A stretch of DNA of 64,000 bases from Escherichia coli O127:H6 str. E2348/69 (GTDB lineage: Bacteria; Pseudomonadota; Gammaproteobacteria; Enterobacterales; Enterobacteriaceae): the NCBI RefSeq assembly GCF_000026545.1, contig NC_011601.1, one strand, 5' to 3'. Below, piece after piece: positions 24,793 to 57,607 of this stretch (position 1 is its first letter; each line of letters begins with the position of its first letter). Position numbers and translations under genes: made by a program. The notes under the pieces were generated by a model that made no database searches, was not told where the DNA came from, and worked only from the letters and a program-made list of their open reading frames with translations.

Positions 24793-25983
24793 TTACATGA
24801 CGCGACAGGCAAACCCTTTCAGATATAGCCCTTCCGGGTAGGTAGCGATCACCGGATGATCGGCTGCCTGACGGAACTGCTCTATAAATTGTACATCACG
24901 ACCGGCATCAATTGCGGCATCCGCGATGATTTTCTGAAATAAATCGCTGGTCATCAGACCGGAACAGGAGAAAGTCAGGAGAATACCGCCTTCATTCAGC
25001 AACTGAATCGCCAGCATGTTGATGTCTTTATAACCACGACACGCGCCCATCAACTGGCTTTTATTCTCAACAAACTTCGGCGGGTCCATCACGATAACAT
25101 CAAATTTTTCACCGCGATCGCGATAAGTACGCAGCAATTTAAAGACATCATCACGGACAAACTCTGCCTTGCTCAGATCCAGTTTGTTCAGCTCAACGTT
25201 CTGCCGTGCAATATCCAGCGCTTCGTGGGAGGTATCAACGCTGACAACCTGGCTGCAACCGCCCATCAATGCCGATACGGCGAAACCACCGGTATAGGAG
25301 AAACAGTTAAGTACGCGTTTATTTTCGACGTAGCGGCGGGTAGCCAGGCGGCTGTCACGCTGGTCCAGGTAGTAGCCCGTTTTGTGTCCGTGCTGAATAT
25401 CCACCAGCAGTTTCATGCCGTGTTCTTCAATCGGCAGCAGGGCAGGCGGCAACTCGCCGGTGATGGGGCCCTGAGTCAGCTCCATCCCTTCTTTTTTACG
25501 TACCGCGACGTCGCTGCGATCGTAAATAGCACATTCCGGGTACAGCGTTTGCAGGACACTAATTAATGCCGCGCGCTGATACTCTGCGCCAGCACTCAGC
25601 AGTTGCAGCACCAGAAAATTACCGAAACGATCGATAGTAATACCCGGCAGGCCATCAGATTCTCCGGCGATTAAACGATAGCTGTCGAGGCCATCTTTTT
25701 GCGCCAGCCAGTCACGCCATTTTTGTGCTTGCTGTAAACGGCGGGTAAAAAAAGCAATGTCGATAGACTCAGACGGGTCAAACGTCCAGACGCGCGCCCG
25801 GATTTGCGAAGCTGGCGAATAAGCGCCGCGTGCTAACCATTTTCCCTGATGATCAACAATATCGATGGTTTCACCGAGGCTGGCTTTACCTTCCATGCGG
25901 GCAACGGCCCCGGAAAAGACCCACGGATGGCGACGAAGTAATGATTTTTCGCGCCCTTTGGCTAACACTAAACGTACACTCAT
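24793..25983 (-). CDS. rlmI: 23S rRNA m5C1962 methyltransferase RlmI
   Basis: 396-aa ORF with SAM-methyltransferase motifs; synteny. Confidence 0.9.
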
Positions 25984-26077
25984 AATTTACTTTTCTGTCG
26001 ATGCAAAGAAATGGGCGTCATTGTCCGGAGTTTTCCATGGATTTGCAACGCGTCCATTAAGGATAAGGAGAGCAGCA

Positions 26078-26356
26078 ATGTCGAAAGTCTGCATAATTGC
26101 CTGGGTTTACGGGCGAGTTCAGGGCGTAGGATTCCGCTACACCACGCAGTACGAAGCGAAAAAACTGGGACTAACCGGGTACGCCAAAAATCTTGACGAT
26201 GGCAGCGTGGAAGTGGTTGCCTGCGGTGACGAAGAGCAGGTGGAAAAATTAATGCAGTGGTTAAAAAGTGGCGGCCCGCGTTCAGCGCGTGTGGAACGGG
26301 TGCTTAGCGAGCCGCATCATCCCTCCGGGGAGTTAACGGATTTTCGTATTCGTTAA
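26078..26356 (+). CDS. yccX: acylphosphatase
   Basis: 92-aa product from ATG 26078 starting [21 protein letters not shown]. Confidence 0.85.
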
Positions 26357-26682
26357 ATGCATTTTACCGGTTTAGGCAGGCCAGCAATTTTGGTGGCTTG
26401 CTTTGCCGGACCTTTCGGGAACAGTCGGTACAGATAGCGGCTGTTACCTTTTTCTTCGCCAAATTTATTCGCCATCGCTTTTACCAGCATACGAATCGCC
26501 GGAGAAGTATTGAATTCCAGATAGAAATCACGCACAAAACGCACCACTTCCCAGTGTTCTGGCGACAGCGCAATCCCTTCGTTCTCTGCAATCACCACCG
26601 CCAGTGGTTCACTCCACTGGCTGCTTTCTTTGAGATAGCCTTCGGTATCCGTTTCTATCTCTTTACCTTCGAAGATCAGCAT
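26353..26682 (-). CDS. tusE: sulfurtransferase TusE
   Basis: 109-aa DsrC-like ORF with C-terminal Cys; synteny. Confidence 0.85.
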
Positions 26683-26773
26683 AATTCTTTACTACCTTAA
26701 TCAGACTGGCGGCAGTGTAACAAAAAACAAAGCCCCGCATAAAGCGAGGCTCGGTAAGTAACCCTGGGCGAGA

Positions 26774-27433
26774 TTAATCGCGGCTGGCGAAGCCCAGAAT
26801 GCTCAGCAGGCTGACGAAGATGTTGTACAGCGAAACATACAGGCTAACCGTGGCACGAATATAGTTCGTTTCACCGCCATGAATGATGTTGCTGGTTTCA
26901 AACAAAATAGCGCCAGAGGAGATCAGAATGAAGACCGCGCTGATCGCCAGATGCAGAGCAGGCAGTTGCAGGAAGATATTAGCAACCATACCAATCAGCA
27001 CCACCACAATACCCGCCATCAGCATACCGCCGAGGAACGACATATCTTTGCGGGTGGTCAGCACATATGCAGAGCAGCAGAAGAACACTAACGCCGTTCC
27101 GCCCAGTGCCATAGCGATTACGTCACCCATTCCGGTAGCCAGATAGGTATTCAAAATTGGCCCGAGGATATAACCCAGAAAACCGGTAAAGGCGAATGCG
27201 GAGATAATCCCGGTCGGCTTATTCGCCGTTTTGTAGGTCAGGAACATCAAACCATACATACCCACCAGCGTCAGAATCAGACCCGGAGATGGCAGCATCA
27301 GCACCGTACTGGCAGTTGCGGTAATCGCCGAAAAGGCCAGCGTCAGGCTCAGCAGAAAATAGGTATTACGCAGCACCTTATGGGTGCTAAGCAGTGATGT
27401 ACGGTCATGTGAAGAACTAACAATACGATCCAT
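26774..27433 (-). CDS. yccA: Bax-inhibitor family membrane protein YccA
   Basis: 219-aa seven-TM ORF; synteny next to serT. Confidence 0.9.
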
Positions 27434-27601
27434 TGAGTCACTCTCTATGACAGATGTAATTAATTAAGCAGCATAATGATAATGCGTAAGGGCACCCAGA
27501 AGTTTTACCCATCTTTACGCATTTGATCTGGAACAGGTTTAACAGCGGATTATCAGGTCATTAAGCAAATATAACGCCCTGAGAATTTCGACAGGCAAAA
27601 G

Positions 27602-27631
27602 AAAAAGGGGTTAGCAGTTAGCTAACCCCTT
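27602..27631 (-). terminator. intrinsic terminator downstream of serT
   Basis: Hairpin ggggttagc-agtta-gctaacccc with flanking A/T runs. Confidence 0.7.
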
Positions 27632-27639
27632 ATCTTATT

Positions 27640-27727
27640 TGGCGGAAGCGCAGAGATTCGAACTCTGGAACCCTTTCGGGTCGCCGGTTTTCAAGACCGG
27701 TGCCTTCAACCGCTCGGCCACACTTCC
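27640..27727 (-). tRNA. serT: tRNA-Ser (anticodon UGA)
   Basis: 88-nt reverse complement reads GGAAGTGTGGCCGAGCGGTTGAAGGCACCGGTCTTGAAAACCGGCGACCCGAAAGGGTTCCAGAGTTCGAATCTCTGCGCTTCCGCCA with long variable arm and CCA end. Confidence 0.9.
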
Positions 27728-28153
27728 GGAATGACGCGCACTATAAACATCCCGATGCGGCGTGTAAACCCCTAATTTGTTTGTTTGCCTGAAAAACAGC
27801 CAAAAGTGCATTAATAGCGTGAAATAACAGCAGATTGATCATTTCATCACCATGAATTCCTTCTCTTTTACTCGTTTAGCAACCGGCTAAACATCCCCAC
27901 CGCCCGGTAAAAAGAAAAATAGGTCCATTTTTATCGCTAAAAGATAAATCCACACAGTTTGTATTGTTTTGTGCAAAAGTTTCACTACGCTTTATTAACA
28001 ATACTTTCTGGCGACGTGCGCCAGTGCAGAAGGATGAGCTTTCGTTTTCAGCATCTCACGTGAAGCGATGGTTTGCCTTGCTACAGGGACGTCGCTTGCC
28101 GACCATGTGCGCCCGGTGTCCTGCCGGTGTCGCAAGGAGAAGAGACGTGCGAT

Positions 28154-29272
28154 ATGAATAACGAGGAAACATTTTACCAGGCCATGCGGCGTCAGGGCGT
28201 TACCCGGCGCAGCTTTCTCAAATATTGTAGTCTGGCTGCCACGTCGCTGGGATTAGGCGCGGGAATGGCACCAAAGATTGCTTGGGCGCTGGAGAATAAA
28301 CCGCGCATTCCGGTGGTATGGATCCACGGTCTGGAATGCACCTGCTGTACCGAATCTTTTATCCGCTCCGCTCACCCACTGGCGAAGGACGTCATCCTTT
28401 CCCTGATTTCCCTCGATTACGACGATACTTTGATGGCTGCCGCCGGAACCCAGGCGGAAGAAGTCTTTGAAGACATCATCACGCAATACAATGGCAAATA
28501 TATCCTCGCCGTTGAAGGTAATCCGCCGCTGGGCGAGCAGGGGATGTTCTGTATCAGCAGCGGTCGACCGTTTATTGAGAAACTCAAACGTGCCGCTGCC
28601 GGAGCCAGTGCGATTATCGCCTGGGGAACCTGCGCGTCCTGGGGCTGCGTGCAGGCCGCGCGACCCAATCCGACGCAGGCAACGCCTATCGACAAAGTCA
28701 TCACCGACAAACCTATTATCAAAGTACCTGGCTGCCCGCCGATCCCGGATGTGATGAGCGCCATCATTACTTACATGGTGACCTTTGATCGCTTGCCAGA
28801 TGTCGACAGAATGGGCCGTCCGTTGATGTTCTATGGTCAGCGAATCCACGATAAATGCTATCGCCGCGCTCACTTCGACGCCGGAGAGTTCGTGCAGAGT
28901 TGGGATGATGACGCTGCCCGCAAAGGTTACTGCCTGTACAAAATGGGCTGCAAAGGGCCTACCACCTATAACGCCTGTTCCTCCACACGCTGGAACGATG
29001 GCGTTTCCTTCCCGATCCAGTCAGGTCACGGCTGCCTGGGTTGTGCGGAAAATGGTTTCTGGGATCGTGGTTCGTTCTACAGCCGCGTGGTCGATATTCC
29101 ACAAATGGGTACCCATTCCACCGCCGACACCGTCGGTTTAACCGCGCTTGGCGTGGTGGCAGCGGCTGTTGGTGTGCACGCAGTCGCCAGCGCCGTTGAC
29201 CAGCGCAGACGTCATAACCAGCAACCTACAGAAACCGAACATCAGCCAGGCAATGAGGATAAACAGGCATGA
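28154..29272 (+). CDS. hyaA: hydrogenase-1 small subunit
   Basis: 372-aa product from ATG 28154 with Tat signal RRSFLK. Confidence 0.9.
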
Positions 29273-31062
29273 GCACTCAGTACGAAACTCAGGGATACAC
29301 CATCAACAATGCCGGACGCCGCCTGGTGGTCGACCCGATTACGCGCATTGAAGGCCACATGCGCTGCGAAGTGAATATTAACGATCAGAATGTGATCACC
29401 AATGCCGTCTCCTGCGGCACCATGTTTCGCGGGCTGGAGATCATCCTGCAAGGGCGTGACCCGCGCGATGCGTGGGCGTTCGTTGAACGTATCTGCGGCG
29501 TCTGTACTGGCGTACACGCCCTGGCTTCGGTTTACGCCATCGAAGATGCCATCGGTATTAAAGTGCCGGATAACGCCAATATCATCCGCAACATTATGCT
29601 GGCAACGCTCTGGTGCCACGATCATCTGGTGCACTTCTATCAGCTTGCCGGGATGGACTGGATCGATGTGTTAGATGCGCTGAAAGCCGACCCGCGGAAA
29701 ACCTCCGAACTGGCGCAAAGCCTCTCCTCATGGCCGAAATCATCCCCTGGCTATTTCTTCGACGTACAAAACCGCCTGAAGAAATTCGTTGAAGGCGGGC
29801 AGTTGGGGATCTTCCGCAATGGCTACTGGGGGCACCCGCAGTACAAACTGCCGCCAGAAGCCAACCTGATGGGCTTTGCCCACTATCTCGAAGCTCTCGA
29901 TTTCCAGCGTGAAATTGTCAAAATCCACGCGGTCTTTGGTGGTAAAAACCCGCATCCAAACTGGATTGTCGGAGGGATGCCTTGCGCCATTAACATTGAC
30001 GAAAGCGGCGCAGTCGGGGCGGTCAATATGGAACGCCTGAACCTGGTGCAGTCGATCATTACCCGTACGGCGGATTTCATTAACAACGTGATGATCCCCG
30101 ACGCCTTAGCCATCGGCCAGTTCAACAAACCGTGGAGCGAAATCGGCACGGGTCTTTCTGATAAATGTGTCCTCAGCTACGGTGCATTCCCGGATATTGC
30201 CAACGACTTTGGTGAGAAAAGTCTGCTGATGCCTGGCGGCGCGGTGATTAACGGCGACTTCAAAAATGTGCTGCCAGTGGATTTAGTTGATCCGCAGCAG
30301 GTGCAGGAGTTTGTTGACCATGCCTGGTATCGTTATCCCAACGATCAGGTTGGGCGTCATCCGTTCGATGGCATTACCGACCCGTGGTACAACCCCGGCG
30401 ATGTCAAAGGCAGCGATACCAACATTCAGCAGCTGAATGAACAGGAACGCTACTCGTGGATCAAAGCGCCACGCTGGCGCGGTAACGCGATGGAAGTGGG
30501 GCCGCTGGCACGCACGTTAATCGCTTATCACAAAGGCGATGCTGCGACCGTTGAGTCGGTCGATCGCATGATGTCGGCGTTGAACCTGCCGCTTTCCGGC
30601 ATCCAGTCAACGTTAGGCCGCATTTTGTGCCGCGCGCACGAAGCACAGTGGGCCGCAGGTAAGTTGCAGTATTTCTTCGATAAGCTGATGACCAACCTGA
30701 AAAACGGCAATCTTGCCACCGCTTCCACGGAAAAATGGGAACCAGCAACCTGGCCGACAGAGTGCCGTGGTGTCGGTTTTACCGAAGCGCCGCGCGGGGC
30801 GTTAGGCCACTGGGCTGCCATTCGCGATGGCAAGATTGATCTCTATCAGTGCGTGGTGCCGACCACCTGGAACGCCAGCCCGCGCGATCCCAAAGGGCAG
30901 ATTGGTGCTTATGAAGCGGCGCTGATGAACACCAAAATGGCGATCCCCGAGCAACCGCTGGAGATCCTGCGTACTCTGCACAGCTTTGACCCGTGCCTCG
31001 CCTGTTCAACACACGTGCTGGGCGACGACGGTAGCGAGCTGATCTCCGTGCAGGTGCGTTAA
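29269..31062 (+). CDS. hyaB: hydrogenase-1 large subunit
   Basis: 597-aa [NiFe] large subunit with RxCGxC N-terminal and DPCxxC C-terminal metal-site motifs. Confidence 0.9.
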
Positions 31063-31788: not shown

Positions 31789-32372
31789 GCGAGCAACGCG
31801 TGGTGGTAATGGGGCTGGGCAACCTGCTGTGGGCCGATGAAGGCTTCGGCGTGCGGGTGGCGGAACGGCTGTATGCCCATTACCACTGGCCCGAGGATGT
31901 GGAGATTGTCGATGGCGGCACCCAAGGACTGAACTTGCTGGGGTATGTCGAAAGCGCCGGTCATCTGTTGATTCTCGATGCCATTGATTACGGGCTGGAA
32001 CCCGGAACGCTACGAACGTATGCCGGAGAACGCATTCCGGCTTATCTCAGCGCGAAGAAAATGAGCCTGCACCAGAACAGTTTCTCCGAAGTGCTGGCGC
32101 TGGCAGATATCCGCGGACATCTGCCAGCACATATTGCCCTCGTCGGTCTGCAACCCGCGATGCTCGACGACTACGGCGGCAGCCTGAGCGAACTGGCGCG
32201 GGAGCAACTGCCCGCCGCGGAACAGGCGGCGCTGGTACAGCTGGCGGCCTGGGGAATTGTACCGCAACCGACTGAGGAGTTGCGCTGTCTCAATTATGAC
32301 TGTCTGTCGATGGAAAATTACGAAGGCGTTCGCTTGCGTCAGTACCGGATGACACTGGAGGAGCAGGGATGA
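31785..32372 (+). CDS. hyaD: hydrogenase-1 maturation protease
   Basis: 195-aa ORF; operon order. Confidence 0.85.
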
Positions 32373-32767
32373 GCAAGGACACGCCATTTGATGCGTTGTG
32401 GCAACGAATGCTGGCGCGTGGCTGGACGCCGGTCAGTGAATCCCGTCTCGACGACTGGCTTACGCAAGCGCCAGACGGCGTGGTGTTATTAAGCAGCGAT
32501 CCGAAACGCACGCCAGAAGTCAGCGATAACCCGGTAATGATTGGCGAATTACTGCGCGAGTTTCCCGACTATACATGGCAGGTAGCGATTGCTGATCTTG
32601 AGCAGAGCGAAGCCATCGGCGATCGCTTTGGCGTCTTTCGCTTTCCCGCCACATTAGTGTTTACCGGCGGAAACTATCGCGGCGTGCTGAATGGTATTCA
32701 CCCGTGGGCGGAACTGATAAACCTGATGCGCGGGCTTGTCGAACCGCAACAGGAGCGTGCTTCATGA
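32369..32767 (+). CDS. hyaE: hydrogenase-1 chaperone HyaE
   Basis: 132-aa ORF; operon order. Confidence 0.85.
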
Positions 32768-33621
32768 GCGAAACTTTTTTCCATCTGCTGGGGCCAGGAA
32801 CGCAACCGAACGATGACAGTTTCAGCATGAATCCACTGCCGATCACCTGTCGGGTGAATGGTGAACCGAGTATGGCGGCCCTGGAGCAATGTGCTCACAG
32901 CCCGCAGGTGATTGCGCTGTTAAACGAGTTACAATATCAACTAAGCGAACGCCAGCCGCCGCTGGGTGAGGTACTGGCAGTCGATCTGTTAAATCTCAAC
33001 GCCGACGATCGTCACTTTATCAATACGCTTCTCGGGGAAGGGGAAGTGTCAGTGCGCATTCAGCAGGCTGATGGTAGTGAAAGTGAAATTCAGGAGGCGA
33101 TCTTCTGCGGATTATGGCGGGTACGCAGACGTCACGGCGAACAGTTGCTGGAAGACAAACTGGAGGCTGGCTGCGCACCGCTGGCGTTGTGGCAGGCGGC
33201 AACGCAAAACGTCTTGCCGACAGATTCGCTGTTACCGCCGCCCATTGATGGCCTGATGAATGGCCTACCGTTGGCCCATGAATTACTGGCACATGTACGT
33301 AACCCCGACGCGCAACCGCACAGCATTAATCTGACGCAATTACCCATCAGCGAAGCTGACCGGCTTTTTCTCTCACGTCTCTGTGGGCCGGGAAATATTC
33401 AGATTCGTACCATTGGCTATGGCGAGAGTTATATCAACGCCACGGGGTTACGCCATGTCTGGCATTTACGCTGTACGGACACCTTAAAAGGCCCGTTACT
33501 GGAAAGTTATGAAATCTGCCCAATACCGGAAGTGGTGCTGGCAGCGCCAGAAGATTTGGTCGACTCTGCGCAGCGGCTTAGCGAGGTATGTCAGTGGCTG
33601 GCGGAAGGTGCACCGACGTAA
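32764..33621 (+). CDS. hyaF: hydrogenase-1 operon protein HyaF
   Basis: 285-aa product from ATG 32764 starting [12 protein letters not shown]. Confidence 0.85.
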
Positions 33622-33754
33622 AAAGACGGTAAGTATCGCTTTCAGTCTTATGAATATCGCAATCGGCGAATACCTCTGGTCGTAGAGTTTCAGGATAAAG
33701 AGGGAGATCTACCATTAACGGGTTATTTTTCTCTCTTCGCCTACAGGAGTGCGC

Positions 33755-35299
33755 ATGTGGGATGTCATTGATTTATCGCGCTGGCAGTTTGCACTGACCG
33801 CGCTGTATCACTTTTTATTTGTACCCCTTACCCTGGGGCTGATTTTTTTGCTGGCTATCATGGAAACCATTTACGTGGTCACCGGCAAAACAATCTACCG
33901 AGATATGACGCGCTTCTGGGGTAAGCTCTTCGGTATCAACTTTGCTCTTGGCGTGGCTACCGGCCTGACGATGGAGTTTCAGTTTGGTACTAACTGGTCA
34001 TTCTATTCCAACTATGTGGGCGATATTTTTGGCGCACCGCTGGCGATGGAAGCATTAATGGCCTTCTTCCTCGAATCCACCTTTGTCGGGCTGTTCTTCT
34101 TCGGCTGGCAGCGGCTGAATAAATACCAGCACCTGCTGGTGACGTGGCTGGTGGCGTTCGGTTCAAATCTCTCTGCATTGTGGATATTGAATGCCAACGG
34201 TTGGATGCAATACCCGACCGGTGCGCATTTTGATATCGACACCCTGCGTATGGAGATGACCAGTTTCAGCGAGCTGGTCTTTAATCCGGTCAGCCAGGTG
34301 AAATTTGTGCACACCGTAATGGCGGGCTACGTGACCGGGGCCATGTTTATTATGGCGATCAGCGCCTGGTATTTACTGCGCGGACGGGAGCGCGATGTCG
34401 CATTACGCTCGTTTGCCATCGGTTCCGTCTTCGGTACTCTGGCGATTATCGGTACGCTGCAACTCGGAGACAGTTCTGCGTATGAAGTCGCGCAAGTACA
34501 ACCGGTAAAACTGGCGGCAATGGAAGGGGAGTGGCAAACGGAACCTGCACCTGCACCGTTCCATGTGGTTGCCTGGCCGGAACAGGATCAAGAGCGTAAC
34601 GCCTTTGCCATCAAAATTCCCGCGCTGCTAGGGATCCTCGCCACTCACTCATTAGATAAACCCGTGCCGGGTCTGAAGAATTTGATGGCTGAAACCTACC
34701 CACGCTTGCAACGCGGACGTATGGCCTGGCTGTTAATGCAGGAAATATCGCAAGGCAATCGAGAGCCGCATGTGTTGCAGGCATTCCGGGAGCTGGAAGG
34801 CGACCTGGGTTACGGCATGTTGCTCTCCCGCTATGCGCCGGATATGAATCATGTCACAGCCGCACAGTACCAGGCGGCGATGCGTGGCGCGATACCTCAG
34901 GTTGCGCCGGTATTCTGGAGTTTCCGCATCATGGTGGGCTGTGGTTCCCTGCTGCTACTGGTGATGCTGATTGCGCTTGTTCAGACGCTGCGTGGCAAAA
35001 TCGACCAGCATCGCTGGGTGCTGAAAATGGCGCTCTGGAGTTTGCCGCTGCCGTGGATTGCGATTGAAGCCGGATGGTTTATGACCGAGTTTGGTCGTCA
35101 GCCGTGGGCGATACAGGACATCTTACCGACATACTCCGCGCACTCCGCCTTAACCACAGGACAACTGGCTTTCTCACTGATCATGATCGTAGGGCTTTAC
35201 ACCCTGTTCTTAATCGCCGAAGTCTACCTGATGCAGAAATATGCCCGTCTGGGGCCGAGCGCGATGCAGAGTGAACAACCGACGCAGCAACAGGGGTAA
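33755..35299 (+). CDS. appC: cytochrome bd-II oxidase subunit I
   Basis: 514-aa product from ATG 33755 starting [22 protein letters not shown]. Confidence 0.9.
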
Positions 35300-48689: not shown

Positions 48690-51422
48690 TCAGGTCTTTC
48701 TTATTAACCATGCTTCCAGAGCGGCAACACTGCGTGTAATTTCTTCGTGTGGAAGGGGGGCAGATAATGGCTGCTGCTCCAGTTGTGCGCATTGCTGGCT
48801 GGCGCTACGCATTCCCAGACTCGAGCAACTGCTTTTTAGCTGATGTGCGGCACGCTTTATTTTCTCGTTATCCTGACTGGCGCGGGCAATGTCGATTTCA
48901 TCGAGAAGCGGCAGGGCATGTTGTTTAAATAATATCAGCCATTCGTGGAGCTTCTCCGCCCCCATTAAATGAGCATCTTCATTGAGTTGCGATACATCCA
49001 GTGGTTGATCGTTATTGACTTGCAGTTGGAGATAGTGCGCCAGTAATTGACCGAGCACTTCACGCGGCACCGGTTTAGGGATAATCCCGCGAAATAGCGA
49101 ACTGGTACGCTGTCGCAGTGTTTCGTCAATGACATGGGCGCTAAAGCCAATCAAAACCAGTGACGGATATTGCTGTGCCAGTTGCCGGGCAAGGGTAATG
49201 CCGTCGATATCCGGCAGATCAAAATCCACCAGTGCGGCAGCAAACGGTTCGCTATTTTGCAATGCCTCTATTGCCTGCGCGGCATTTCCTACGGCAACGA
49301 CCTGCGCACCACTGGTGTTCAGCATTTCGACAGTAATTCGCTGGGTGAGCGGGTTATCTTCAATTAACAGCAAACGCAAATCGTCCAGACGTACCGCCTG
49401 ATTGACTGTTTTGGGCACGGGTGCAGTGGCAATACGTAACGGCAAGCGTAAACAAAAACAGCTTCCAACCTCCGGCGTGCTGGTGGCGCTCAGTTCGCCA
49501 CCCATCGCCTGGGCCAGGCGGCTACTGATAGTCAGCCCCAGCCCGGTGCCGCCGCGTTTGCCGCTAACCTGAACAAATGGCTGGAAGATTTTAGCCAGTT
49601 TCGCGGGATCAATACCGCAGCCGCTGTCTTCCACTTCGACCAGCCATTGTTCGCCATCAGTGCGACTACGCAGAATAATGTGCCCTTCGTCGGTGAAACG
49701 CAGGGCGTTGCTCAACAGGTTGGTAATGACCTGACGAATACGCCGCGGATCGCCCATTAACGCAGTCGGTACATCGTCGGCAATTTCTGTTGCCAGGCGA
49801 ATCGGGCGACCTTTCACCCTTCCGCTCATTAATTGCAGGGTACTTTCCAGCAGCGGGCGCGGTTCAAAGGGTTCATCGCTGACCGAAACATTCTTGCCGC
49901 CTGCTTCGATAGCCGAATAATCGAGAATATCGTTGAGGATGGTCAGCAACGATTCACCAGAGTCGGTAATCGCCCGCAAATCATCGCGCTGGGCGTTAAG
50001 TGCGGGGTTATCTGCCAGCAACTGTGCGGTGCCGAGAATACCGTACAGCGGTGTGCGGATCTCATGGCTCATCGCCGCCAGAAACGCTGATTTTGCCTGG
50101 TTGGCTTTTTCTGCTTCCGCCCGTGCCTGTCGGTGTTCTATCACCAGTTCCTGCAATTCAGCTGTACGCGCTTTGACCTGCGCCGCCAACTGTTCACGGT
50201 GGCGATTCAGTGCATGAACACTGCTGCGAAACGCATCCATCAGCCGCCCGATGGTATCCAGCTCCCGTACGCCAGCGGTTTCCGGGAAAGGGGAGTCAAT
50301 ATCACCGTCCAGCAGTCGTTGCAGCGCCTGCGTTTGTTCGGCAAGTGGACGCGTGACTGAGCGATAAACCACGCGCCAGAGGATCAGTATCAGTGCGCAA
50401 AGTGAAACCATCCCCAGCAATAACAGGCTGTATTGCCCGCGTGCACTGGCTTTTTCCAGATGCGCCAGTCCGTGCTGATTACGCAGCTCAATGGTGTCGA
50501 CCAGCTGACTGACTTCGCTACTAAACTGCGCGAATTGGGCGATGTTATTTTGGGCGAGAGTTTGCAGGTGATTGCTGATTTCACTGTCCTGCTGATACAG
50601 CGCCAGCAAATCGCTATATTGGCTAACGGTAGTTAACGTTGTTGCTACCTGAGTACGAACACCCGGATCTTCAATGCGTATTTGCCGACGTTGCAGAATT
50701 TTCACCGCATTATTGAGCTGCTTTTCCAGCGTTGGCGCATTTTTCTGGATCTGTTCCAGCCCCAGATTCATCACCATTTGCTGCACCCGCAGGGCGCTAA
50801 GGCGCAGTTCATTCATCTGGTTAACATACTCAAGATCGATATCAATCAGCCGATCGAGTGCACTTTCTGCGGCCTGACGCTGATGTTGTTCGATCAAATC
50901 GTAAATCCCGGCCTGGGTCGCTCCGGCGGAGGTTGCCGCATTATTCGCCTGACCTTGCGCCAGGCGTGCGATCTCATCGGCGGCGGCGACTATCTGCTGA
51001 CTGAGTTGCTGTTGTTGCTGGCGCAGTTGCAAACGCTGTCCCACCAGTTCCCCTTGCTGACGTAACGAACGGGAGATCTCCTGCTCCTGTTGTTCAATAG
51101 CGGTGGTGTCAAAACCTTGTTCCCGTAACGCTTGCAGCAACGCATTAATCTTCAGGCTTTGTGCGGTGAGCATTCGCCCCTGCGCCTGCCACATCTTTTC
51201 GTTATCGGCACTGGTCAGGTTCTGCGCGGCGAAAAGTTCCCAGGCGCTGGCTTCGCTCAACTGGCGCGCCATATTCATGGTAGGAATCAATGCCTGAGTG
51301 TTGTCTTTTTCCACCTGGCTGATAAAGCGCAGGTTGTACCATCCCACCAGGGTACTGGTCAGGGTTAACAGCGCCATCAGGGCAAAGCCCATCCAGAGTC
51401 TTCGGGTCAGGGTTAAATTCAC
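48690..51422 (-). CDS. torS: TMAO sensor hybrid histidine kinase TorS
   Basis: 910-aa ORF with HAMP, HisKA (SHEIRTP), ATPase, receiver (DFDLPDIDG) and HPt domains; GTG start at 51422. Confidence 0.9.
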
Positions 51423-51516
51423 GGTCGGTGCACTTTGGGTGAATAAGTTGTATATTTAAAATCTCTTTAATTATCAGTAAATTAATGTAAGTAGGTCATT
51501 ATTAGTCAAAATAAAA
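51423..51516. other. attL region (bacterial/phage junction plus P' arm) between torS start and int stop
   Basis: Only 94 bp separate the torS start from the int stop; the junction must lie here, core not resolved by eye. Confidence 0.5.
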
Positions 51517-52590
51517 TCATTTGTCGATTTCAATTTTGTCCCATTCCCGTCCACGGCTGTCCCTATACCGCGCCGCCATTGAATCTGATTTATGCCCGAG
51601 AAGACGTTGAGCAAACTTATCGCCAATCTGGTTCCGGTATAGCCTCGCTGACAGGCTACGCAGTTCATGGAATGTTGGCGGGTTTCCATCAAATGAGAGG
51701 CCAGATGCATTTCTCGCCTTTGTAAAATACTTTGATACTGTTTTCGGGGAAAGCGGATCGTGATGCTTTGATGCGATTATAGTTTCACTGCTGCTGGCCT
51801 CCCTGCATTTCTGTAGTGTATCAGCCAATGAGATATTGAGCGCGTCAATCGTTAGCGTTAGCGGAATGGCGAGTTTAGCCCCTGTTTTACTCTGTTTAAT
51901 GTGAAGATGGTTGTCGTTTATGTCTGACCATTTCATTCTGCACAAATCGCCGACTCTCTGCCCTGTAACGACGGCCAAATCCATCGCCAGCCTTAGCCAG
52001 ATAGGGAGAGGTTCGGCTGCATGGTAAATCTCGACATACTCATTAGCTGTCAGCCTTGAGCGCCTTACTTCTGACTTTGCTGTACGGGTTGCTGTTACCG
52101 GATTCGTTGCCACATGCCCCTCGGCTATTGCTTCACGAAAAACGTCAACAAGGGTTGACCTGATTAATTTTGCGGAAGCTGCTTTACCTTCTGCTACGTA
52201 GGTGTTTAGCATTGCTGCCACTTCTTTCGTTGATATGTCAGTGAGCGGTTTGTCCGGCAATTTTCTTCGGATTGCCCTGATTTTGCTGGCGTAGTCGAGT
52301 AGAGTTTTCGGCCTGATCCCCCTTTCGGTGAGGATTGTTTCATATCGGTCAAGCCACACATGAAGAGTGATTGCGTCACCGCCTTTAATTCTGTCTATCA
52401 GTGATTTGCGTCCGCTGTCTGAGAGTAACTCAATATTGGCCTGTATTGCTTCAGTGATTGCTATCCTCCTGTCTCGGCCTAATCCAAACTCTTTACCCGT
52501 CCTTGGGTCCCTGTAGCAGTAATATCCATTGTTTCTTATATAAAGGTTAGGGGGTAAATCCCGGCGCTCATGACTTCGCCTTCTTCCCAT
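51517..52590 (-). CDS. int: lambda-family tyrosine integrase
   Basis: 357 aa; N-terminus MGRRRSHERRDLPPNLYIRNNGYYCYRDPRTGKEFGLGRDRRIAITEAIQANIEL matches lambda Int arm-binding domain; catalytic region diverges (HK022-like?). Confidence 0.95.
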   Translation of the reverse strand: MGRRRSHERRDLPPNLYIRNNGYYCYRDPRTGKEFGLGRDRRIAITEAIQANIELLSDSGRKSLIDRIKGGDAITLHVWLDRYETILTERGIRPKTLLDYASKIRAIRRKLPDKPLTDISTKEVAAMLNTYVAEGKAASAKLIRSTLVDVFREAIAEGHVATNPVTATRTAKSEVRRSRLTANEYVEIYHAAEPLPIWLRLAMDLAVVTGQRVGDLCRMKWSDINDNHLHIKQSKTGAKLAIPLTLTIDALNISLADTLQKCREASSSETIIASKHHDPLSPKTVSKYFTKARNASGLSFDGNPPTFHELRSLSARLYRNQIGDKFAQRLLGHKSDSMAARYRDSRGREWDKIEIDK

Positions 52591-52786
52591 TTCTGATCCT
52601 CTTCAAAAGGCTACCTGTTACTGGTCGATTTAAGTCAACCTTTACCGCTGATTCGTGGAACAGATACTCTCTTCCATCCTTAACCGGAGGAGGGAATATC
52701 CTGCACTCGCGTACCCATCGACGAACTGTTTCAAGGCTTCTTGGGCGTCGCTGGCGTGCGTTCCACTCCTGAAGTGTCAAGTACAT
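52568..52786 (-). CDS. xis: excisionase
   Basis: 72 aa MYLTLQEWNARQRRPRSLETVRRWVRECRIFPPPVKDGREYLF, essentially lambda Xis; overlaps int start. Confidence 0.95.
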   Translation of the reverse strand: MYLTLQEWNARQRRPRSLETVRRWVRECRIFPPPVKDGREYLFHESAVKVDLNRPVTGSLLKRIRNGKKAKS

Positions 52787-52825
52787 CGCAAAGTCTCCGC
52801 AATTACACGCAAGAAAAAACCGCCA

Positions 52826-52993
52826 TCAGGCGGCTTGGTGTTCTTTCAGTTCTTCAATTCGAATATTGGTTACGTCTGCATGTGCTATCTGTGCCCATAT
52901 CATCCAGTGGTCATAGCAGTCGTTGATGTTCTCTGCTTCGATAACTCTGTTGAATGGCTCTCCATTCCATTCACCTGTGACTCGGAAGTGCAT
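52826..52993 (-). CDS. small hypothetical phage protein (55 aa)
   Basis: Hand-translated minus-strand ORF MHFRVTGEWNGEPFNRVIEAENINDCYDHWMIWAQIAHADVTNIRIEELKEHQAA between xis and ea8.5; not in ORF track. Confidence 0.3.
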   Translation of the reverse strand: MHFRVTGEWNGEPFNRVIEAENINDCYDHWMIWAQIAHADVTNIRIEELKEHQAA

Positions 52994-53081
52994 TTATCAT
53001 CTCCATAAAACAAAACTCGCCGTAGCGAGTTCAGATAAAATAAATCCCCGCGAGTGCGAGGATTGTTATGTAATATTGGGT

Positions 53082-53363
53082 TTAATCATCTATATGTTTT
53101 GTACAGAGAGGGCAAGTATCGTTTCCACCGTACTCGTGATAATAATTTTGCACGGTATCAGTCATTTCTCGCACATTGCAGAATGGGGATTTGTCTTCAT
53201 TAGACTTATAAACCTTCATGGAATATTTGTATGCCGACTCTATATCTATACCTTCATCTACATAAACACCTTCGTGATGTCTGCATGGAGACAAGACACC
53301 GGATCTGCACAACATTGATAACGCCCAATCTTTTTGCTCAGACTCTAACTCATTGATACTCAT
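53082..53363 (-). CDS. ea8.5: Ea8.5-like protein (Cys/His-rich)
   Basis: 93 aa, position after xis as in lambda; C19, C27, H29/H30, C62, C85, C88, H91 suggest zinc binding. Confidence 0.6.
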   Translation of the reverse strand: MSINELESEQKDWALSMLCRSGVLSPCRHHEGVYVDEGIDIESAYKYSMKVYKSNEDKSPFCNVREMTDTVQNYYHEYGGNDTCPLCTKHIDD

Positions 53364-53565
53364 TTATAAACTCCTTGCAATGTATGTCGTTTCAGCTAAA
53401 CGGTATCAGCAATGTTTATGTAAAGAAACAGTAAGATAATACTCAACCCGATGTTTGAGTACGGCCATCATCTGACACTACAGACTCTGGCATCGCTGTG
53501 AAGACGACGCGAAATTCAGCATTTTCACAAGCGTTATCTTTTACAAACCCGTATTCCTGCTCATA

Positions 53566-54234
53566 TCATTCTCCTTTGATGCGAATGCCAGCGGCGCGGA
53601 TAGATTTCCATTGTTCCCATATGCGGTTGAAGTCTGTTCCTGATAAGGTCGCGTTACGGTATCCAGTTTCGGTGCGCAATCCTTCAAGCGTCGATTTGGA
53701 AATACAAATTGAATGCATTACCCATGATTCGAACAAATCACGCTCCCGGGCTTCGCAACTTTGCTTACTCATCTCTTCGATACGTTCAGCCATCGCAGCA
53801 CACTCTTCAAAGTTACTTAATGCTTTTCGCTCCCATTCGGCGCATTGTTTTCCAAGCTCTGCAATCAGCTTGTCTTTGCCTTCCAGCTCAACTCGCAGCT
53901 TCCCTACCGTTAGCGCAATATCCTCGTTCTCCTGATCACGGCTTTTGATGTATTGCTGGTTTCTTTCCCGTTCATCCAGCAGCGCCAGCACGGTAGCTGG
54001 ACTGGCTGCGGCGATGAATTCAGCATTGGCCTGCTGTTCCATTTGGAAATCTTCATCGAAACCGCTTTCAGGATGCGCTCCTTCAATTATGCAAATGGGA
54101 ATATATCCAGCAGCCTCGCGATGAATTAGCGCATCATCACAATCAAATCGGCTCTCTCCATATTCGAGCGACCATACACCACACGTTGCTTTTTCTGCCT
54201 TGGCACGCAGTGCCTCATAGTCAATCTTGCTCAC
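53566..54234 (-). CDS. Ead/Ea22-like protein with coiled-coil C-terminal half
   Basis: N-terminal [18 protein letters not shown]... is the conserved Ea22-type start; probable GTG start at 54234 six nt after RBS aaggagg and overlapping upstream stop (alternative ATG at 54267). Confidence 0.6.
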   Translation of the reverse strand: MSKIDYEALRAKAEKATCGVWSLEYGESRFDCDDALIHREAAGYIPICIIEGAHPESGFDEDFQMEQQANAEFIAAASPATVLALLDERERNQQYIKSRDQENEDIALTVGKLRVELEGKDKLIAELGKQCAEWERKALSNFEECAAMAERIEEMSKQSCEARERDLFESWVMHSICISKSTLEGLRTETGYRNATLSGTDFNRIWEQWKSIRAAGIRIKGE

Positions 54235-54812
54235 TGGTTGCCTCCTTTGCGAATCTGTTCCGCCCATTCTTCAAGGGATTTCTCCGCATATTCACCGGAC
54301 AGGCCATCAATCGGGTGCAGTTCATTAGCCAACTCTTCTTTCGCTGACAGAATCATGCGTGTAACGTCGAAAACTTCACGCAAAGACTTATTGATAAATC
54401 CGTGGTTGAAAGCAGCAGCAAGACGGCTGGCGGTATAGTTAATCCCCTCGTTGCGTGCTTCTGCACGAATTTCAGCCAGAAAAGCATCGGTAGCTGGGGT
54501 GTCTGATTGCAGAAACTTTGCGCGATAGTCATTCCACCCTCTTGCATACATGGGATTAACTTGCACTCCATCTTTTACGCAATATGCCTGCCCTCCACGG
54601 TTGATAACCTTGATTTCGTCCATAGCGCCAGACTTCAGCCCCGCATTCTCCGCTGCCAGCGCCGCGCACTTGGCCTCAGCTTCAGCAAATTTACGCACCA
54701 TATATTCAGCATTTGTTTCGTTAACCTTTAAATCACATGAGATGCATTTACCTTTCAGAAATCCATCCATCTCAATTAGTGTCATTCGTTTCATTTCTTC
54801 CCACTCCGCCAC
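54231..54812 (-). CDS. hypothetical phage protein (193 aa)
   Basis: Long ORF in lambda b2/ea region, tightly packed with neighbours; no recognisable motif. Confidence 0.5.
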
Positions 54813-54973
54813 ATCGCATTCAGATATTTGTTTTGATTCACTGACGGAGAAGAATTTCTCTTAAGCAATTCCTCTCTCGATGGCATTGGCTTTACGCGTT
54901 GGCGAATAATCATTTCTGCCGGAAGAATGCCGGGATTGTATGCAAGTCCTCTCATGGTAAATTCCTCAGTCAT
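54791..54973 (-). CDS. hypothetical small phage protein (about 60 aa)
   Basis: Internal Met ([15 protein letters not shown]...) of ORF 54791..55105 gives a start just past the upstream stop. Confidence 0.3.
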
Positions 54974-55259
54974 TACTGATAGCGCCATAGCGTGAGCGGT
55001 AATTACGCAGGCGCGGGTCAATTTCAGGGAAGTGTGTATATGCGGCTTTGCGGAATGGTCGTATTGATGTCTGGTAAATTCGCTCTCGTTCTTCTTTCTC
55101 TGCAAGCCATATACAGTGGCGAAATTCCTTTTCCTCTTTCGTTTCCTGCGGTAGCGACATTATCCGGTCGTAGTTTTTCCTGAATTTATCCAGCACCTCC
55201 GATACGGAATTGCCGGAACAGCGGCGCGGGTCATCCGCACCATACTGAGGCGCTGGCAT
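54966..55259 (-). CDS. hypothetical phage protein (97 aa)
   Basis: ORF immediately downstream of ssb. Confidence 0.45.
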
Positions 55260-55272
55260 GATTTTCTCCTGA

Positions 55273-55779
55273 TTAAATTGCGTGAATAGCGTGACGAGGG
55301 AAGGGGAGAGTTACTGGTGCAAAGGGTATATCGTCGTCAAAATCCATCGGAGGTTCGTTGTGTTGTGCTGGTGATGATTGCTGCTGTGGCTTCTGTGATT
55401 GCCTGCTGGCTGCTTGTTGTTTGCTGTCGCCAATGCCGCCAAGCATTTGCATCACGCCATTAATTCCGACATGAACCTCGGTTGTGTAACGGTCTTGCCC
55501 TGACTGGTCTTTCCACTTTCTGGTTCTCAGCATTCCCTCGAAATAAATCTGATCACCTTTTTTCACATACTGCCCCACGACCTCAGCCAGTTTCCCGGAT
55601 ACAGCAACACGATGCCATTCAGTCAATTCCTTTTGCTCGCCAGTATTTTTATCTCGCCATTGTTCTGACGTGGCTATTGTCAGGTTAGCGAACGCTGTTC
55701 CTGATGGTGAGTATCGAACTTCCGGGTCTTGTCCTACCCGACCAAGGATAATCACCTTATTTACGCCTCTGCTTGCCAT
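55273..55779 (-). CDS. ssb: phage single-stranded DNA-binding protein
   Basis: 168 aa starting [23 protein letters not shown] (OB fold), Gln/Pro-rich linker, acidic tail DFDDDIPF. Confidence 0.9.
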
Positions 55780-56487
55780 TTATGCTGCCTGTTTTAGTTC
55801 GTTAACTCTGATGTTCATTACCTGAACACATTTAGCCTGCGCCTCCTCGTTGCCAGCCATTAATTGCCAGTCACGCTGATAACGCTCGATGAGTTTTTTC
55901 TTGTCAGTTTCTGTCGCTGCATAATCGCTGAAGTCTTTCAGGATTTGTTCGCAGTCAACCGATGGAGATTTCTGGTTGGTATTTTCTGGTGATGGTTTGT
56001 TATCTGATGCTGGGATTGCCCATCCCGGCAGTGATGGAGGTAGCCAGTAAAATCCTGTTCCATCCTTCAGTTTTGCCCTGTGCCACCCCTGCTTTTTATC
56101 GAGAGATGTTTGTGCGAAACCTTCCTCAAGGTTATACAGATACCGACCGATTCCCCACTGAACGGCAGCGCGCTTCATTGCACCGGAACGACCGCCTTTG
56201 ACAGCTTCTACCTGCGTGTTTTCAGCAGCATCCCATTTGGTTACCCATTCGGAATCAATCCTGATTGATATGCCGCATTCAACGCCTCCGTTGTTGGGAA
56301 TATCGCGGTATTCATTGCGCCATCCTGCTTTGCCGCAAACATCGTCCAGACGTTTCATGATTGCCCGGTTCGTGACATAAGCCAGCACCATAGCCCACAC
56401 CTTGCCATCGCGTGTTTTACCGCTTTGCTGTATTCGCCATTCGATATCTTCAGGGCTGAATGGCTCATCGAATTTGTTCAAATCCAT
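55780..56487 (-). CDS. single-strand annealing recombinase, Rad52-like N-domain with Erf-like C-terminus
   Basis: 235 aa; N-terminal half has Rad52/Sak-type motifs (GISIRID, AMKRAAVQWGIGRYLY); C-terminal 50 aa (EQILKDFSDYAATETDKKKLIERYQRDWQ...) resembles P22 Erf C-terminus as recalled; adjacent to ssb. Confidence 0.7.
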   Translation of the reverse strand: MDLNKFDEPFSPEDIEWRIQQSGKTRDGKVWAMVLAYVTNRAIMKRLDDVCGKAGWRNEYRDIPNNGGVECGISIRIDSEWVTKWDAAENTQVEAVKGGRSGAMKRAAVQWGIGRYLYNLEEGFAQTSLDKKQGWHRAKLKDGTGFYWLPPSLPGWAIPASDNKPSPENTNQKSPSVDCEQILKDFSDYAATETDKKKLIERYQRDWQLMAGNEEAQAKCVQVMNIRVNELKQAA

Positions 56488-56586
56488 AATTCACCTCAGA
56501 ATGGACACGGCCCAAGGAAATAACGCTGATTTAATACTTCGACTCGGGACAAATTAAGGCATACCCGCATTCCTTCGCGGTCGCCA

Positions 56587-56745
56587 TTATGGCGATACCA
56601 GAGAGCTTTCTGCGTGTACATGCGTCTCTGTAACTTGCTCTCCTTCACTGTGGTTGCAAGTGACATGAATATCTCCTTCGTTACCGATTAATTCTTTCAT
56701 CTGACGAATGAATTCTTCGTCTGAGCAGTTATCTGTAAAACTCAT
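56587..56745 (-). CDS. small acidic hypothetical protein (52 aa), coupled to kil
   Basis: Hand-translated ORF MSFTDNCSDEEFIRQMKELIGNEGDIHVTCNHSEGEQVTETHVHAESSLVSP; its ATG overlaps the kil-like stop (ATGA). Confidence 0.3.
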   Translation of the reverse strand: MSFTDNCSDEEFIRQMKELIGNEGDIHVTCNHSEGEQVTETHVHAESSLVSP

Positions 56746-56894
56746 TTCCTGCGATACCACGGAAGGTTGATAGCTGATTTCATCGCTTTATTTGCTTCAA
56801 GCCACATTTTGGAATCACCAATAAATCTGGCTATTACTGCTTTGTTCTGTGCAGCACGAAGCATCTGGTGATTGATGGCTATTTCATTGCGCAT
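56742..56894 (-). CDS. kil: Kil-like host-killing small protein
   Basis: Hand-translated 50 aa MRNEIAINHQMLRAAQNKAVIARFIGDSKMWLEANKAMKSAINLPWYRRK; FIGD-x-KM motif and position next to cIII as in lambda. Confidence 0.45.
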   Translation of the reverse strand: MRNEIAINHQMLRAAQNKAVIARFIGDSKMWLEANKAMKSAINLPWYRRK

Positions 56895-57013
56895 AACGCC
56901 TCCAGTTGTTTCTTTGCTGCTCTGATTAATTGTTTAACTCGGCGTGATAATTCAGATTCGTGCGGGTAGAAAGCGGACATGACGCCGCTACCCGCGAGCT
57001 GAAAGTGCATCAT
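56879..57013 (-). CDS. cIII: cIII-like FtsH inhibitor
   Basis: 44 aa MMHFQLAGSGVMSAFYPHESELSRRVKQLIRAAKKQLEALCAMK after RBS aaggag; pattern resembles lambda CIII (AG...V...P.ES.L..R). Confidence 0.5.
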   Translation of the reverse strand: MMHFQLAGSGVMSAFYPHESELSRRVKQLIRAAKKQLEALCAMK

Positions 57014-57088
57014 GGGTAACTCCTTATATTTGATTGCATAACGAAAACGCCTCGAGTGAAGCGTTATTGGTATGCGGTAAAGCCGCAC

Positions 57089-57457
57089 TCAGGCGGCCTT
57101 GATAGTCATATCATCTGAATCAAATATTCCTGATGTATCGATATCGGTAATTCTTATTCCTTCACTACCATCCATTGGAGGCCATCCTTCCTGACCATTT
57201 CCATCATCCCAGTCGAACTCACAAACAACACCATATGCATTTAAGTCTTTCGAAATTGCTATAAGCAGAGCATGTTGCGCCAGCATGATTAATACAGCAT
57301 TTAATACAGAGCCGTGTTTATTGAGTCGGTATTCAGAGTCTGACCAGAAATTATTAATCTGGTGAAGTTTTTCCTCTGTCATTACGTCATGGTCGATTTC
57401 AATTTCTATTGATGCTTTCCAGTCGTAATCAATGATGTATTTTTTGATGTTTGACAT
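57089..57457 (-). CDS. highly acidic 122-aa protein in the lambda ea10 slot
   Basis: ORF with RBS gagga; C-terminal EFDWDDGNGQEGWPPMDGSEGIRITDIDTSGIFDSDDM; low GC; terminator directly upstream. Confidence 0.6.
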   Translation of the reverse strand: MSNIKKYIIDYDWKASIEIEIDHDVMTEEKLHQINNFWSDSEYRLNKHGSVLNAVLIMLAQHALLIAISKDLNAYGVVCEFDWDDGNGQEGWPPMDGSEGIRITDIDTSGIFDSDDMTIKAA

Positions 57458-57475
57458 CTATTCATATCCTCATAG

Positions 57476-57503
57476 ATAAAAAATCGCCCTCACATTAGAG
57501 GGC
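57476..57503 (-). terminator. intrinsic terminator between the 156-aa moron and the 122-aa gene
   Basis: Minus-strand hairpin gccctc-taatgt-gagggc followed by gatttttt. Confidence 0.7.
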
Positions 57504-57607
57504 AAAGAAGATTTCCAATAATCAGAACAAGTCGGCTCCTGTTTAGTTACGAGCGACATTGCTCCGTGTATTCACTCGTTGGAATGAATACACAGTGCTT
57601 ATTCGTA

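Follow-up and report, generated by a model that had tools for sequence, protein, structure and literature searches.

The DNA upstream of torS

The window, a stretch of 64,000 nucleotides from Escherichia coli O127:H6 str. E2348/69 (assembly GCF_000026545.1, contig NC_011601.1), has an integrase gene immediately upstream of torS, the gene for the TMAO sensor kinase, and raises the question of what this element is and how torS is expressed beside it. The original prediction was that a lambdoid prophage had inserted directly upstream of torS, so that the 5' region of torS had become partly phage DNA. For gene annotation we used the RefSeq E2348/69 record NZ_CP059840.2, which agrees with the window at every one of the 33,101 nt compared. 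The features of the region are as follows.

48690..51422, minus strand: torS, TMAO sensor kinase (ORF list, alignment with K-12 torS, RefSeq annotation)
51423..51516: gap of 94 bp between the torS GTG and the int stop codon
51517..52590, minus strand: int, HK022-type tyrosine integrase of 357 aa, reading toward torS (ORF list, megablast, protein comparison)
52568..52786, minus strand: xis, excisionase of 72 aa (ORF list, protein comparison)
52787..64000, running on past the window: early region of prophage PP4 (annotated in RefSeq on the identical E2348/69 sequence)

The predicted K-12-like host synteny up to torS is seen in the RefSeq gene order (ssuE...ompA...hya-app-gfc-csp-yccM-torS), the ORF coordinates confirm the 94 bp claimed between the torS start and the int stop, and int, xis and a lambdoid early region are present beyond torS, as judged from both the ORFs and the RefSeq annotation. 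According to the ORF list, xis and int overlap by 23 nt. When positions 51423-52786 were compared with a phage collection by megablast, the attP-int-xis DNA of HK022 and mEp235 matched with 96% identity over 99% of the query, and Stx1a-converting phages and H19J matched with 95-98.7% identity, whereas the identity to lambda, 434 and HK97 was only ~77%. When positions 50900-52000 were searched by megablast in 5,426 complete E. coli genomes, E2348/69 matched at 100%, and the homology to prophage-free E. coli genomes ended at ~51450. Because the homology to the attP-int-xis DNA of HK022 and mEp235 begins at 51433, the phage and host homologies overlap between 51433 and ~51450, indicating that this shared stretch is the recombination core.

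An HK022-type integrase and excisionase

The integrase is identical to HK022 Int at 345 of 357 residues (96.6%) and to lambda Int at 74.7% overall. As had been proposed, a lambda-identical N-terminal domain is joined to a divergent catalytic domain: residues 1-55, which form the arm-binding N-terminal domain, are identical to those of lambda Int, whereas the core-binding and catalytic domains have ~70-72% identity to lambda and 95-98% to HK022. All six residues of the catalytic set (R212-K235-H308-R311-H333-Y342, lambda numbering) are present. At lambda positions 99, 282, 283, 287 and 319 the protein has D, P, K, K and R, as HK022 Int does, whereas lambda Int has N, S, G, R and E; these are the five positions that, in the 1995 work of Dorgai, Yagil and Weisberg, reportedly switch lambda to HK022 core-site specificity. 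The non-lambda att specificity that was originally suspected thus agrees with an integrase of the HK022 type. Further, Xis has the same sequence as in HK022, and a single aa separates it from lambda Xis.

attL and attR of the prophage

We aligned the core sites four ways, using K-12 attB, HK022 attP, the attL in the window and the attR at the far end of the E2348/69 prophage. The HK022 core consists of B-O-B' in 7+7+7 bp (Kolot and Yagil group, PMC7736782). The aligned cores, divided accordingly, read:

attB, K-12: GCACTTT / AGGTGAA / AAAGGTT
attP, HK022: ATCCTTT / AGGTGAA / TAAGTTG
attL, window 51430-51450: GCACTTT / GGGTGAA / TAAGTTG
attR, far end of the E2348/69 prophage: ATCCTTT / GGGTGAA / AAAGGTT

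The host flanks are those of K-12 attB and the phage flanks those of HK022 attP, giving attL the structure B-O-P' and attR the structure P-O-B'. Alignment to the K-12 torS-torT spacer and to HK022 attP places the core of attL at 51430-51450. The sites in attL are listed below; those in the P' arm carry the names of the established lambda attP layout and were assigned by homology to it.

51430..51436, plus strand: B core-type Int site of attL, GCACTTT, host DNA identical to K-12 attB
51437..51443, plus strand: 7-bp overlap O (crossover region), GGGTGAA; AGGTGAA in HK022 attP and K-12 attB
51444..51450, plus strand: C' core-type Int site, TAAGTTG, the first phage-derived DNA, identical to the C' of HK022 and lambda
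51444..51530, plus strand: P' arm of attL, 100% identical to HK022 (lambda/HK022 alignment)
51472-51484, P' arm: IHF H'-like site, TATCAGTAAATTA
51493-51502, P' arm: arm-type Int site P'1, AGGTCATTAT
51503-51512, P' arm: arm-type Int site P'2, TAGTCAAAAT
51514-51523, P' arm, overlapping the int stop codon: arm-type Int site P'3, AAATCATTTG

The claim that the DNA upstream of torS is partly phage P' arm is therefore borne out, with phage-derived sequence from 51444 onward. Over positions 51444-51699, which cover the P' arm and the int 3' end, the window is identical to HK022 at 256/256 nt. The K-12 torS-torT intergenic region measures 82 bp; here the annotated torS GTG is preceded by no more than 21 bp of original sequence, 14 bp from the host plus the 7-bp overlap. 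A search for attR found it beyond the window end, 55 bp upstream of torT and at a core-to-core distance of 45,513 bp from attL, from which it follows that int belongs to this element; an uninterrupted torS-torT spacer is excluded, the spacer being split by the prophage. The whole B'-side spacer is kept beside torT and is identical to K-12 in the four-site alignment. We note that torT had been thought to be replaced by int and xis. It is instead intact and displaced to the far prophage end, 45.5 kb away, and according to the RefSeq annotation torR and torCAD are likewise intact beyond attR. The torS GTG and the torT ATG lie 45,595 bp apart, in agreement with the 45,626 bp listed between torS and torT for E2348/69 (NC_011601, phylogroup B2) in Supplementary file 1 of Carey et al. 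2019 (eLife 8:e49081, PMC6814406) once a 30-nt start-codon shift, described below, is added. Overall, we conclude that the locus is attL, int and xis of a prophage in the HK022 attachment site between torS and torT; the tentative proposal of an HK022-type attB at this position is upheld by the comparison of attB, attP, attL and attR and by Carey et al. 2019 (PMC6814406).

The prophage is PP4

The prophage is PP4 of EPEC E2348/69, a mosaic lambdoid prophage of ~45.5 kb with an HK022 integration module. Its early genes include an ea22-like gene, anti-RecBCD, ssb, a Rad52-family recombinase gene, kil, N, BRO and a cI-like repressor gene, followed by cro-like, cII, O/P-like replication genes, ren and nin genes including ninB. 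Beyond the window, the RefSeq annotation lists a lysis cassette, lambda-like head and tail genes and, at the attR end, a cargo of nleG-like (DUF1076), nleB2, nleC, an nleH remnant and nleD; this effector cargo matches that of PP4 of E2348/69 (PMC2697328). Positions 54900-56500 hold a P22-like recombination module (Abc2-type anti-RecBCD, ssb and a Rad52-family annealing protein) and not lambda Red, and the antiterminator is of the N type where HK022 has Nun. Because of these two features, PP4 is a mosaic whose similarity to HK022 is confined to the integration module. Within that module, the crossover position, the P' arm and Xis are the same, Int is 96.6% identical and the P arm with its tI/sib-like hairpin is conserved; the overlap (GGGTGAA in PP4, AGGTGAA in HK022) differs. 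Outside it, PP4 is set apart from HK022 by its antiterminator, its recombination module, its lambda-like tail and its T3SS effector cargo. Frameshifts are annotated in tail tip gene J and in the tape measure gene (25748-29462 and 31853-34908, numbering of the far-end segment), and PP4 may be unable to produce infectious particles although int, xis, attL and attR look intact.

Probable transcription of torS from phage DNA

The torS-torT prophage locus and its regulatory consequence have been published, with E2348/69 included by listing (Carey et al. 2019, PMC6814406). In that work, integration of HK022 between torS and torT parts torS from an IscR operator, which is placed on the torT side, between the overlap and torT. 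Neither of the two native torS transcription starts is retained: the junction partly ablates one, and the other is moved to the attR side. Nevertheless, torS transcription goes up in HK022 lysogens while torT transcription is unchanged, and the increase in torS disappears when an omega terminator is inserted at attL. With the use of ~200 bp upstream of torS, a torS transcription start was mapped inside the prophage. Excess TorS without bound TorT holds TorR in the dephosphorylated state. The lysogens therefore have torCAD switched off in air, can induce it anaerobically and forfeit a bet-hedging strategy; aerobic torCAD expression is also lost in the natural lysogen NRG 857C. The same authors point out that prophages at this site vary in content and that their behaviour need not be uniform (PMC6814406).

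We expect the same regulatory effect in E2348/69 as in HK022 lysogens, because the 256 bp of phage DNA beside torS are identical to HK022, and we consider it highly likely that the region is the attL-int-xis end of PP4, with torS over-expressed from a phage promoter and torCAD off in air. PP4 integrated by Int-mediated recombination of attP with attB in the torS-torT spacer, an event that moved torT, together with the region from the overlap to torT on which Carey et al. 2019 place the IscR operator, 45.5 kb away to the attR end. As in HK022 lysogens, torS would then be transcribed from a promoter inside the phage DNA beside attL, and TorS would be made in excess over TorT, the latter presumably still repressed by IscR. 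TorT-free TorS would dephosphorylate TorR, and the prediction is that torCAD is not expressed in air but still responds to TMAO when oxygen is absent. The possible change in TMAO sensing that was raised originally has thus been demonstrated experimentally for HK022 lysogens and for NRG 857C (PMC6814406). The regulatory reading as a whole holds in so far as torS control is altered; the implied loss of torS expression does not stand, the published effect being over-expression with loss of IscR control. In this respect the locus represents a prophage that alters host behaviour by its place of integration and not by its cargo, as shown experimentally by Carey et al. 2019 (PMC6814406), and any silencing of aerobic TMAO respiration and of bet-hedging by PP4 in the prototype EPEC strain could affect how well it grows in the gut, in which TMAO is present. 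The published experiments and E2348/69 share the site, the orientation and the promoter-bearing phage sequence, and E2348/69 appears in the natural-lysogen table of Carey et al. 2019 (PMC6814406). They differ in that the experiments were done in K-12(HK022) and in NRG 857C, whose prophage is P22-like and has several differences in the P' arm, whereas the P' arm of E2348/69 is identical to that of HK022.

A consensus scan of attL for sigma-70-like promoters returned two hexamer pairs in the P' arm, a number not above chance; both are weak and directed toward torS.

51527->51498, minus strand: TCGACA-18-AATAAT
51499->51470, minus strand: ATGACC-18-GATAAT

These two pairs are candidates for the phage-encoded torS promoter that was mapped in HK022 lysogens. 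In the K-12 torS-torT spacer, the consensus scan gave no sigma-70 promoter match, and Carey et al. 2019 (PMC6814406) likewise saw no clear -10 or -35 elements. Because the hexamer matches are weak and occur at chance frequency, the exact torS promoter cannot be placed from sequence, and it is the data of Carey et al. 2019, together with the 100% identity to HK022, and not the hexamer scan, that argue for the existence of a phage promoter of torS.

We also inspected the region for terminators. In the P arm at attR, a lambda-like tI/sib hairpin (TTAGCGCAAG...CTTGCGCTAA) is conserved at 18940-18990 (numbering of the far-end segment); the terminator scan of attR missed it, and only when the P arm was aligned with lambda and HK022 did it become apparent. 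Between xis and the next leftward ORF, at 52817-52836 on the minus strand, is a strong terminator-like hairpin with a T-run after it (AAGCCGCCTGATGGCGGTTT TTTCTT). From its place just upstream of xis, this hairpin might restrict how far pL transcription that is not antiterminated runs on into xis and int, and so toward torS.

Alternative readings of the torS junction

The int gene of PP4 at attB(HK022) reads outward, in the same direction as torS, and the terminator scan detected no terminator-like site along the minus strand from the int stop to torS. Because the tI/sib hairpin belongs to the P arm, it has been relocated to attR, apart from int, and no terminator is left between int and torS. 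This arrangement would suit a situation in which torS is driven mainly by read-through of the int transcript, started at pI, or at pL after induction, and not by a dedicated promoter in the P' arm. We regard this as improbable, since the ~200 bp upstream of torS comprise attL, the P' arm and only ~80 bp of the int 3' end, although int read-through could plausibly add to torS expression during induction. A textbook analogy is offered by lambda attL beside gal, where 'escape synthesis' of gal occurs from pL. The geometry is the same, with a host gene downstream of int across attL and tI/sib moved to attR, but the documented driver of torS is a promoter near attL and not pL. It is very unlikely, on the other hand, that the insertion merely removed the torS promoter and left a strain without TorS and blind to TMAO. 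The loss of both native torS transcription starts (Carey et al. 2019, PMC6814406) and the short remnant of original sequence upstream of the torS GTG are what such a strain would display, but in HK022 lysogens torS transcription rises and anaerobic induction of torCAD by TMAO is normal (PMC6814406), and the phage DNA adjoining torS in E2348/69 is identical to that of HK022. Transcription of torS from a promoter in the P' arm therefore remains our preferred reading.

A change of promoter would be without consequence if torS itself were a dead pseudogene, and RefSeq does label the gene 'frameshifted'. Compared with K-12 torS, a 1-nt deletion at nt 2719 turns the last 8 aa, HKKDLNAI, into IRKT followed by a stop, and PGAP calls torS a frameshifted pseudogene extended to 48679 (3' end, window 48679-48710). 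However, the frameshift alters only these last 8 of 914 TorS residues, and a 90-nt stretch identical to this torS 3' end is present in 1077 of 5406 complete genomes, ST131 strains among them, and also in the non-lysogen N68. Further, NRG 857C, which has the same TorS C-terminus as E2348/69, responds to TMAO under anaerobic conditions by inducing torCAD (Carey et al. 2019, PMC6814406). Because a strain with the same allele responds to TMAO, the allele ending in IRKT is very probably functional, a lineage allele that has been mis-flagged. We reject the view that torS is dead in E2348/69, the allele being common and found in a TMAO-responsive strain, and a promoter swap made inconsequential by the frameshift is extremely unlikely.

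The 5' end of torS also differs from its annotation. Translational fusions support an ATG located 30 nt downstream of the annotated GTG as the torS start (Carey et al. 2019, PMC6814406). In the window this ATG lies at 51392-51390, so that 30 nt are added to the effective upstream region, and the annotated GTG start at 51422 is probably wrong.

Polymorphism of the overlap

In PP4 the overlap begins with G (GGGTGAA), in attL (51437) as well as in attR (18768, minus strand, numbering of the far-end segment). This first base is A in HK022 attP, in K-12, in N68 and in both attL and attR of NRG 857C. In the source FASTA of Carey et al. 2019, G is found in five sequences, including the independent E2348/69 assembly NC_011601, and we thus rejected a sequencing error as its origin. 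The machine-read alignment in the PDF of Supplementary file 2 has an A for E2348/69; we consider it unreliable, as the FASTA of the same paper has G. The exact attL is common to only 4 RefSeq lysogens, and an empty attB with G in the overlap is present in at least 25 non-lysogenic genomes, including NC101 and NGF1, which suggests that the crossover site is polymorphic in host and phage. Since such empty sites exist, heteroduplex repair need not be invoked. The overlap may have any sequence provided that both partners match (PMC7736782), and the simplest reading is that a matched pair of phage and host recombined.

It is conceivable, though we think it doubtful, that the A/G polymorphism of the overlap acts as a lock-and-key barrier to host range. 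If it did, PP4-type phages with a matching attP would integrate efficiently only in the sub-lineage with an empty GGGTGAA attB (including NC101, NGF1 and several H6 strains), and HK022-type phages with AGGTGAA would be disfavoured in GGGTGAA hosts. Phage and host would then co-vary at a site that also controls torS regulation.

Frequency and relatives of the junction

The torS-attL-int junction was found in 194 of 5,426 E. coli genomes (3.6%), and ~5% of complete genomes have been reported to carry a prophage at the torS-torT site (Carey et al. 2019, PMC6814406). Apart from HK022, the Stx1a-converting phages of O26:H11 and other STEC (H19J, Stx1a_11KH263) have int-xis-attL DNA that is 95-98.7% identical to that of PP4 and, according to paper titles and records, the same torS-torT insertion site. 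They differ from PP4 in that stx1a takes the place of its nle effectors.
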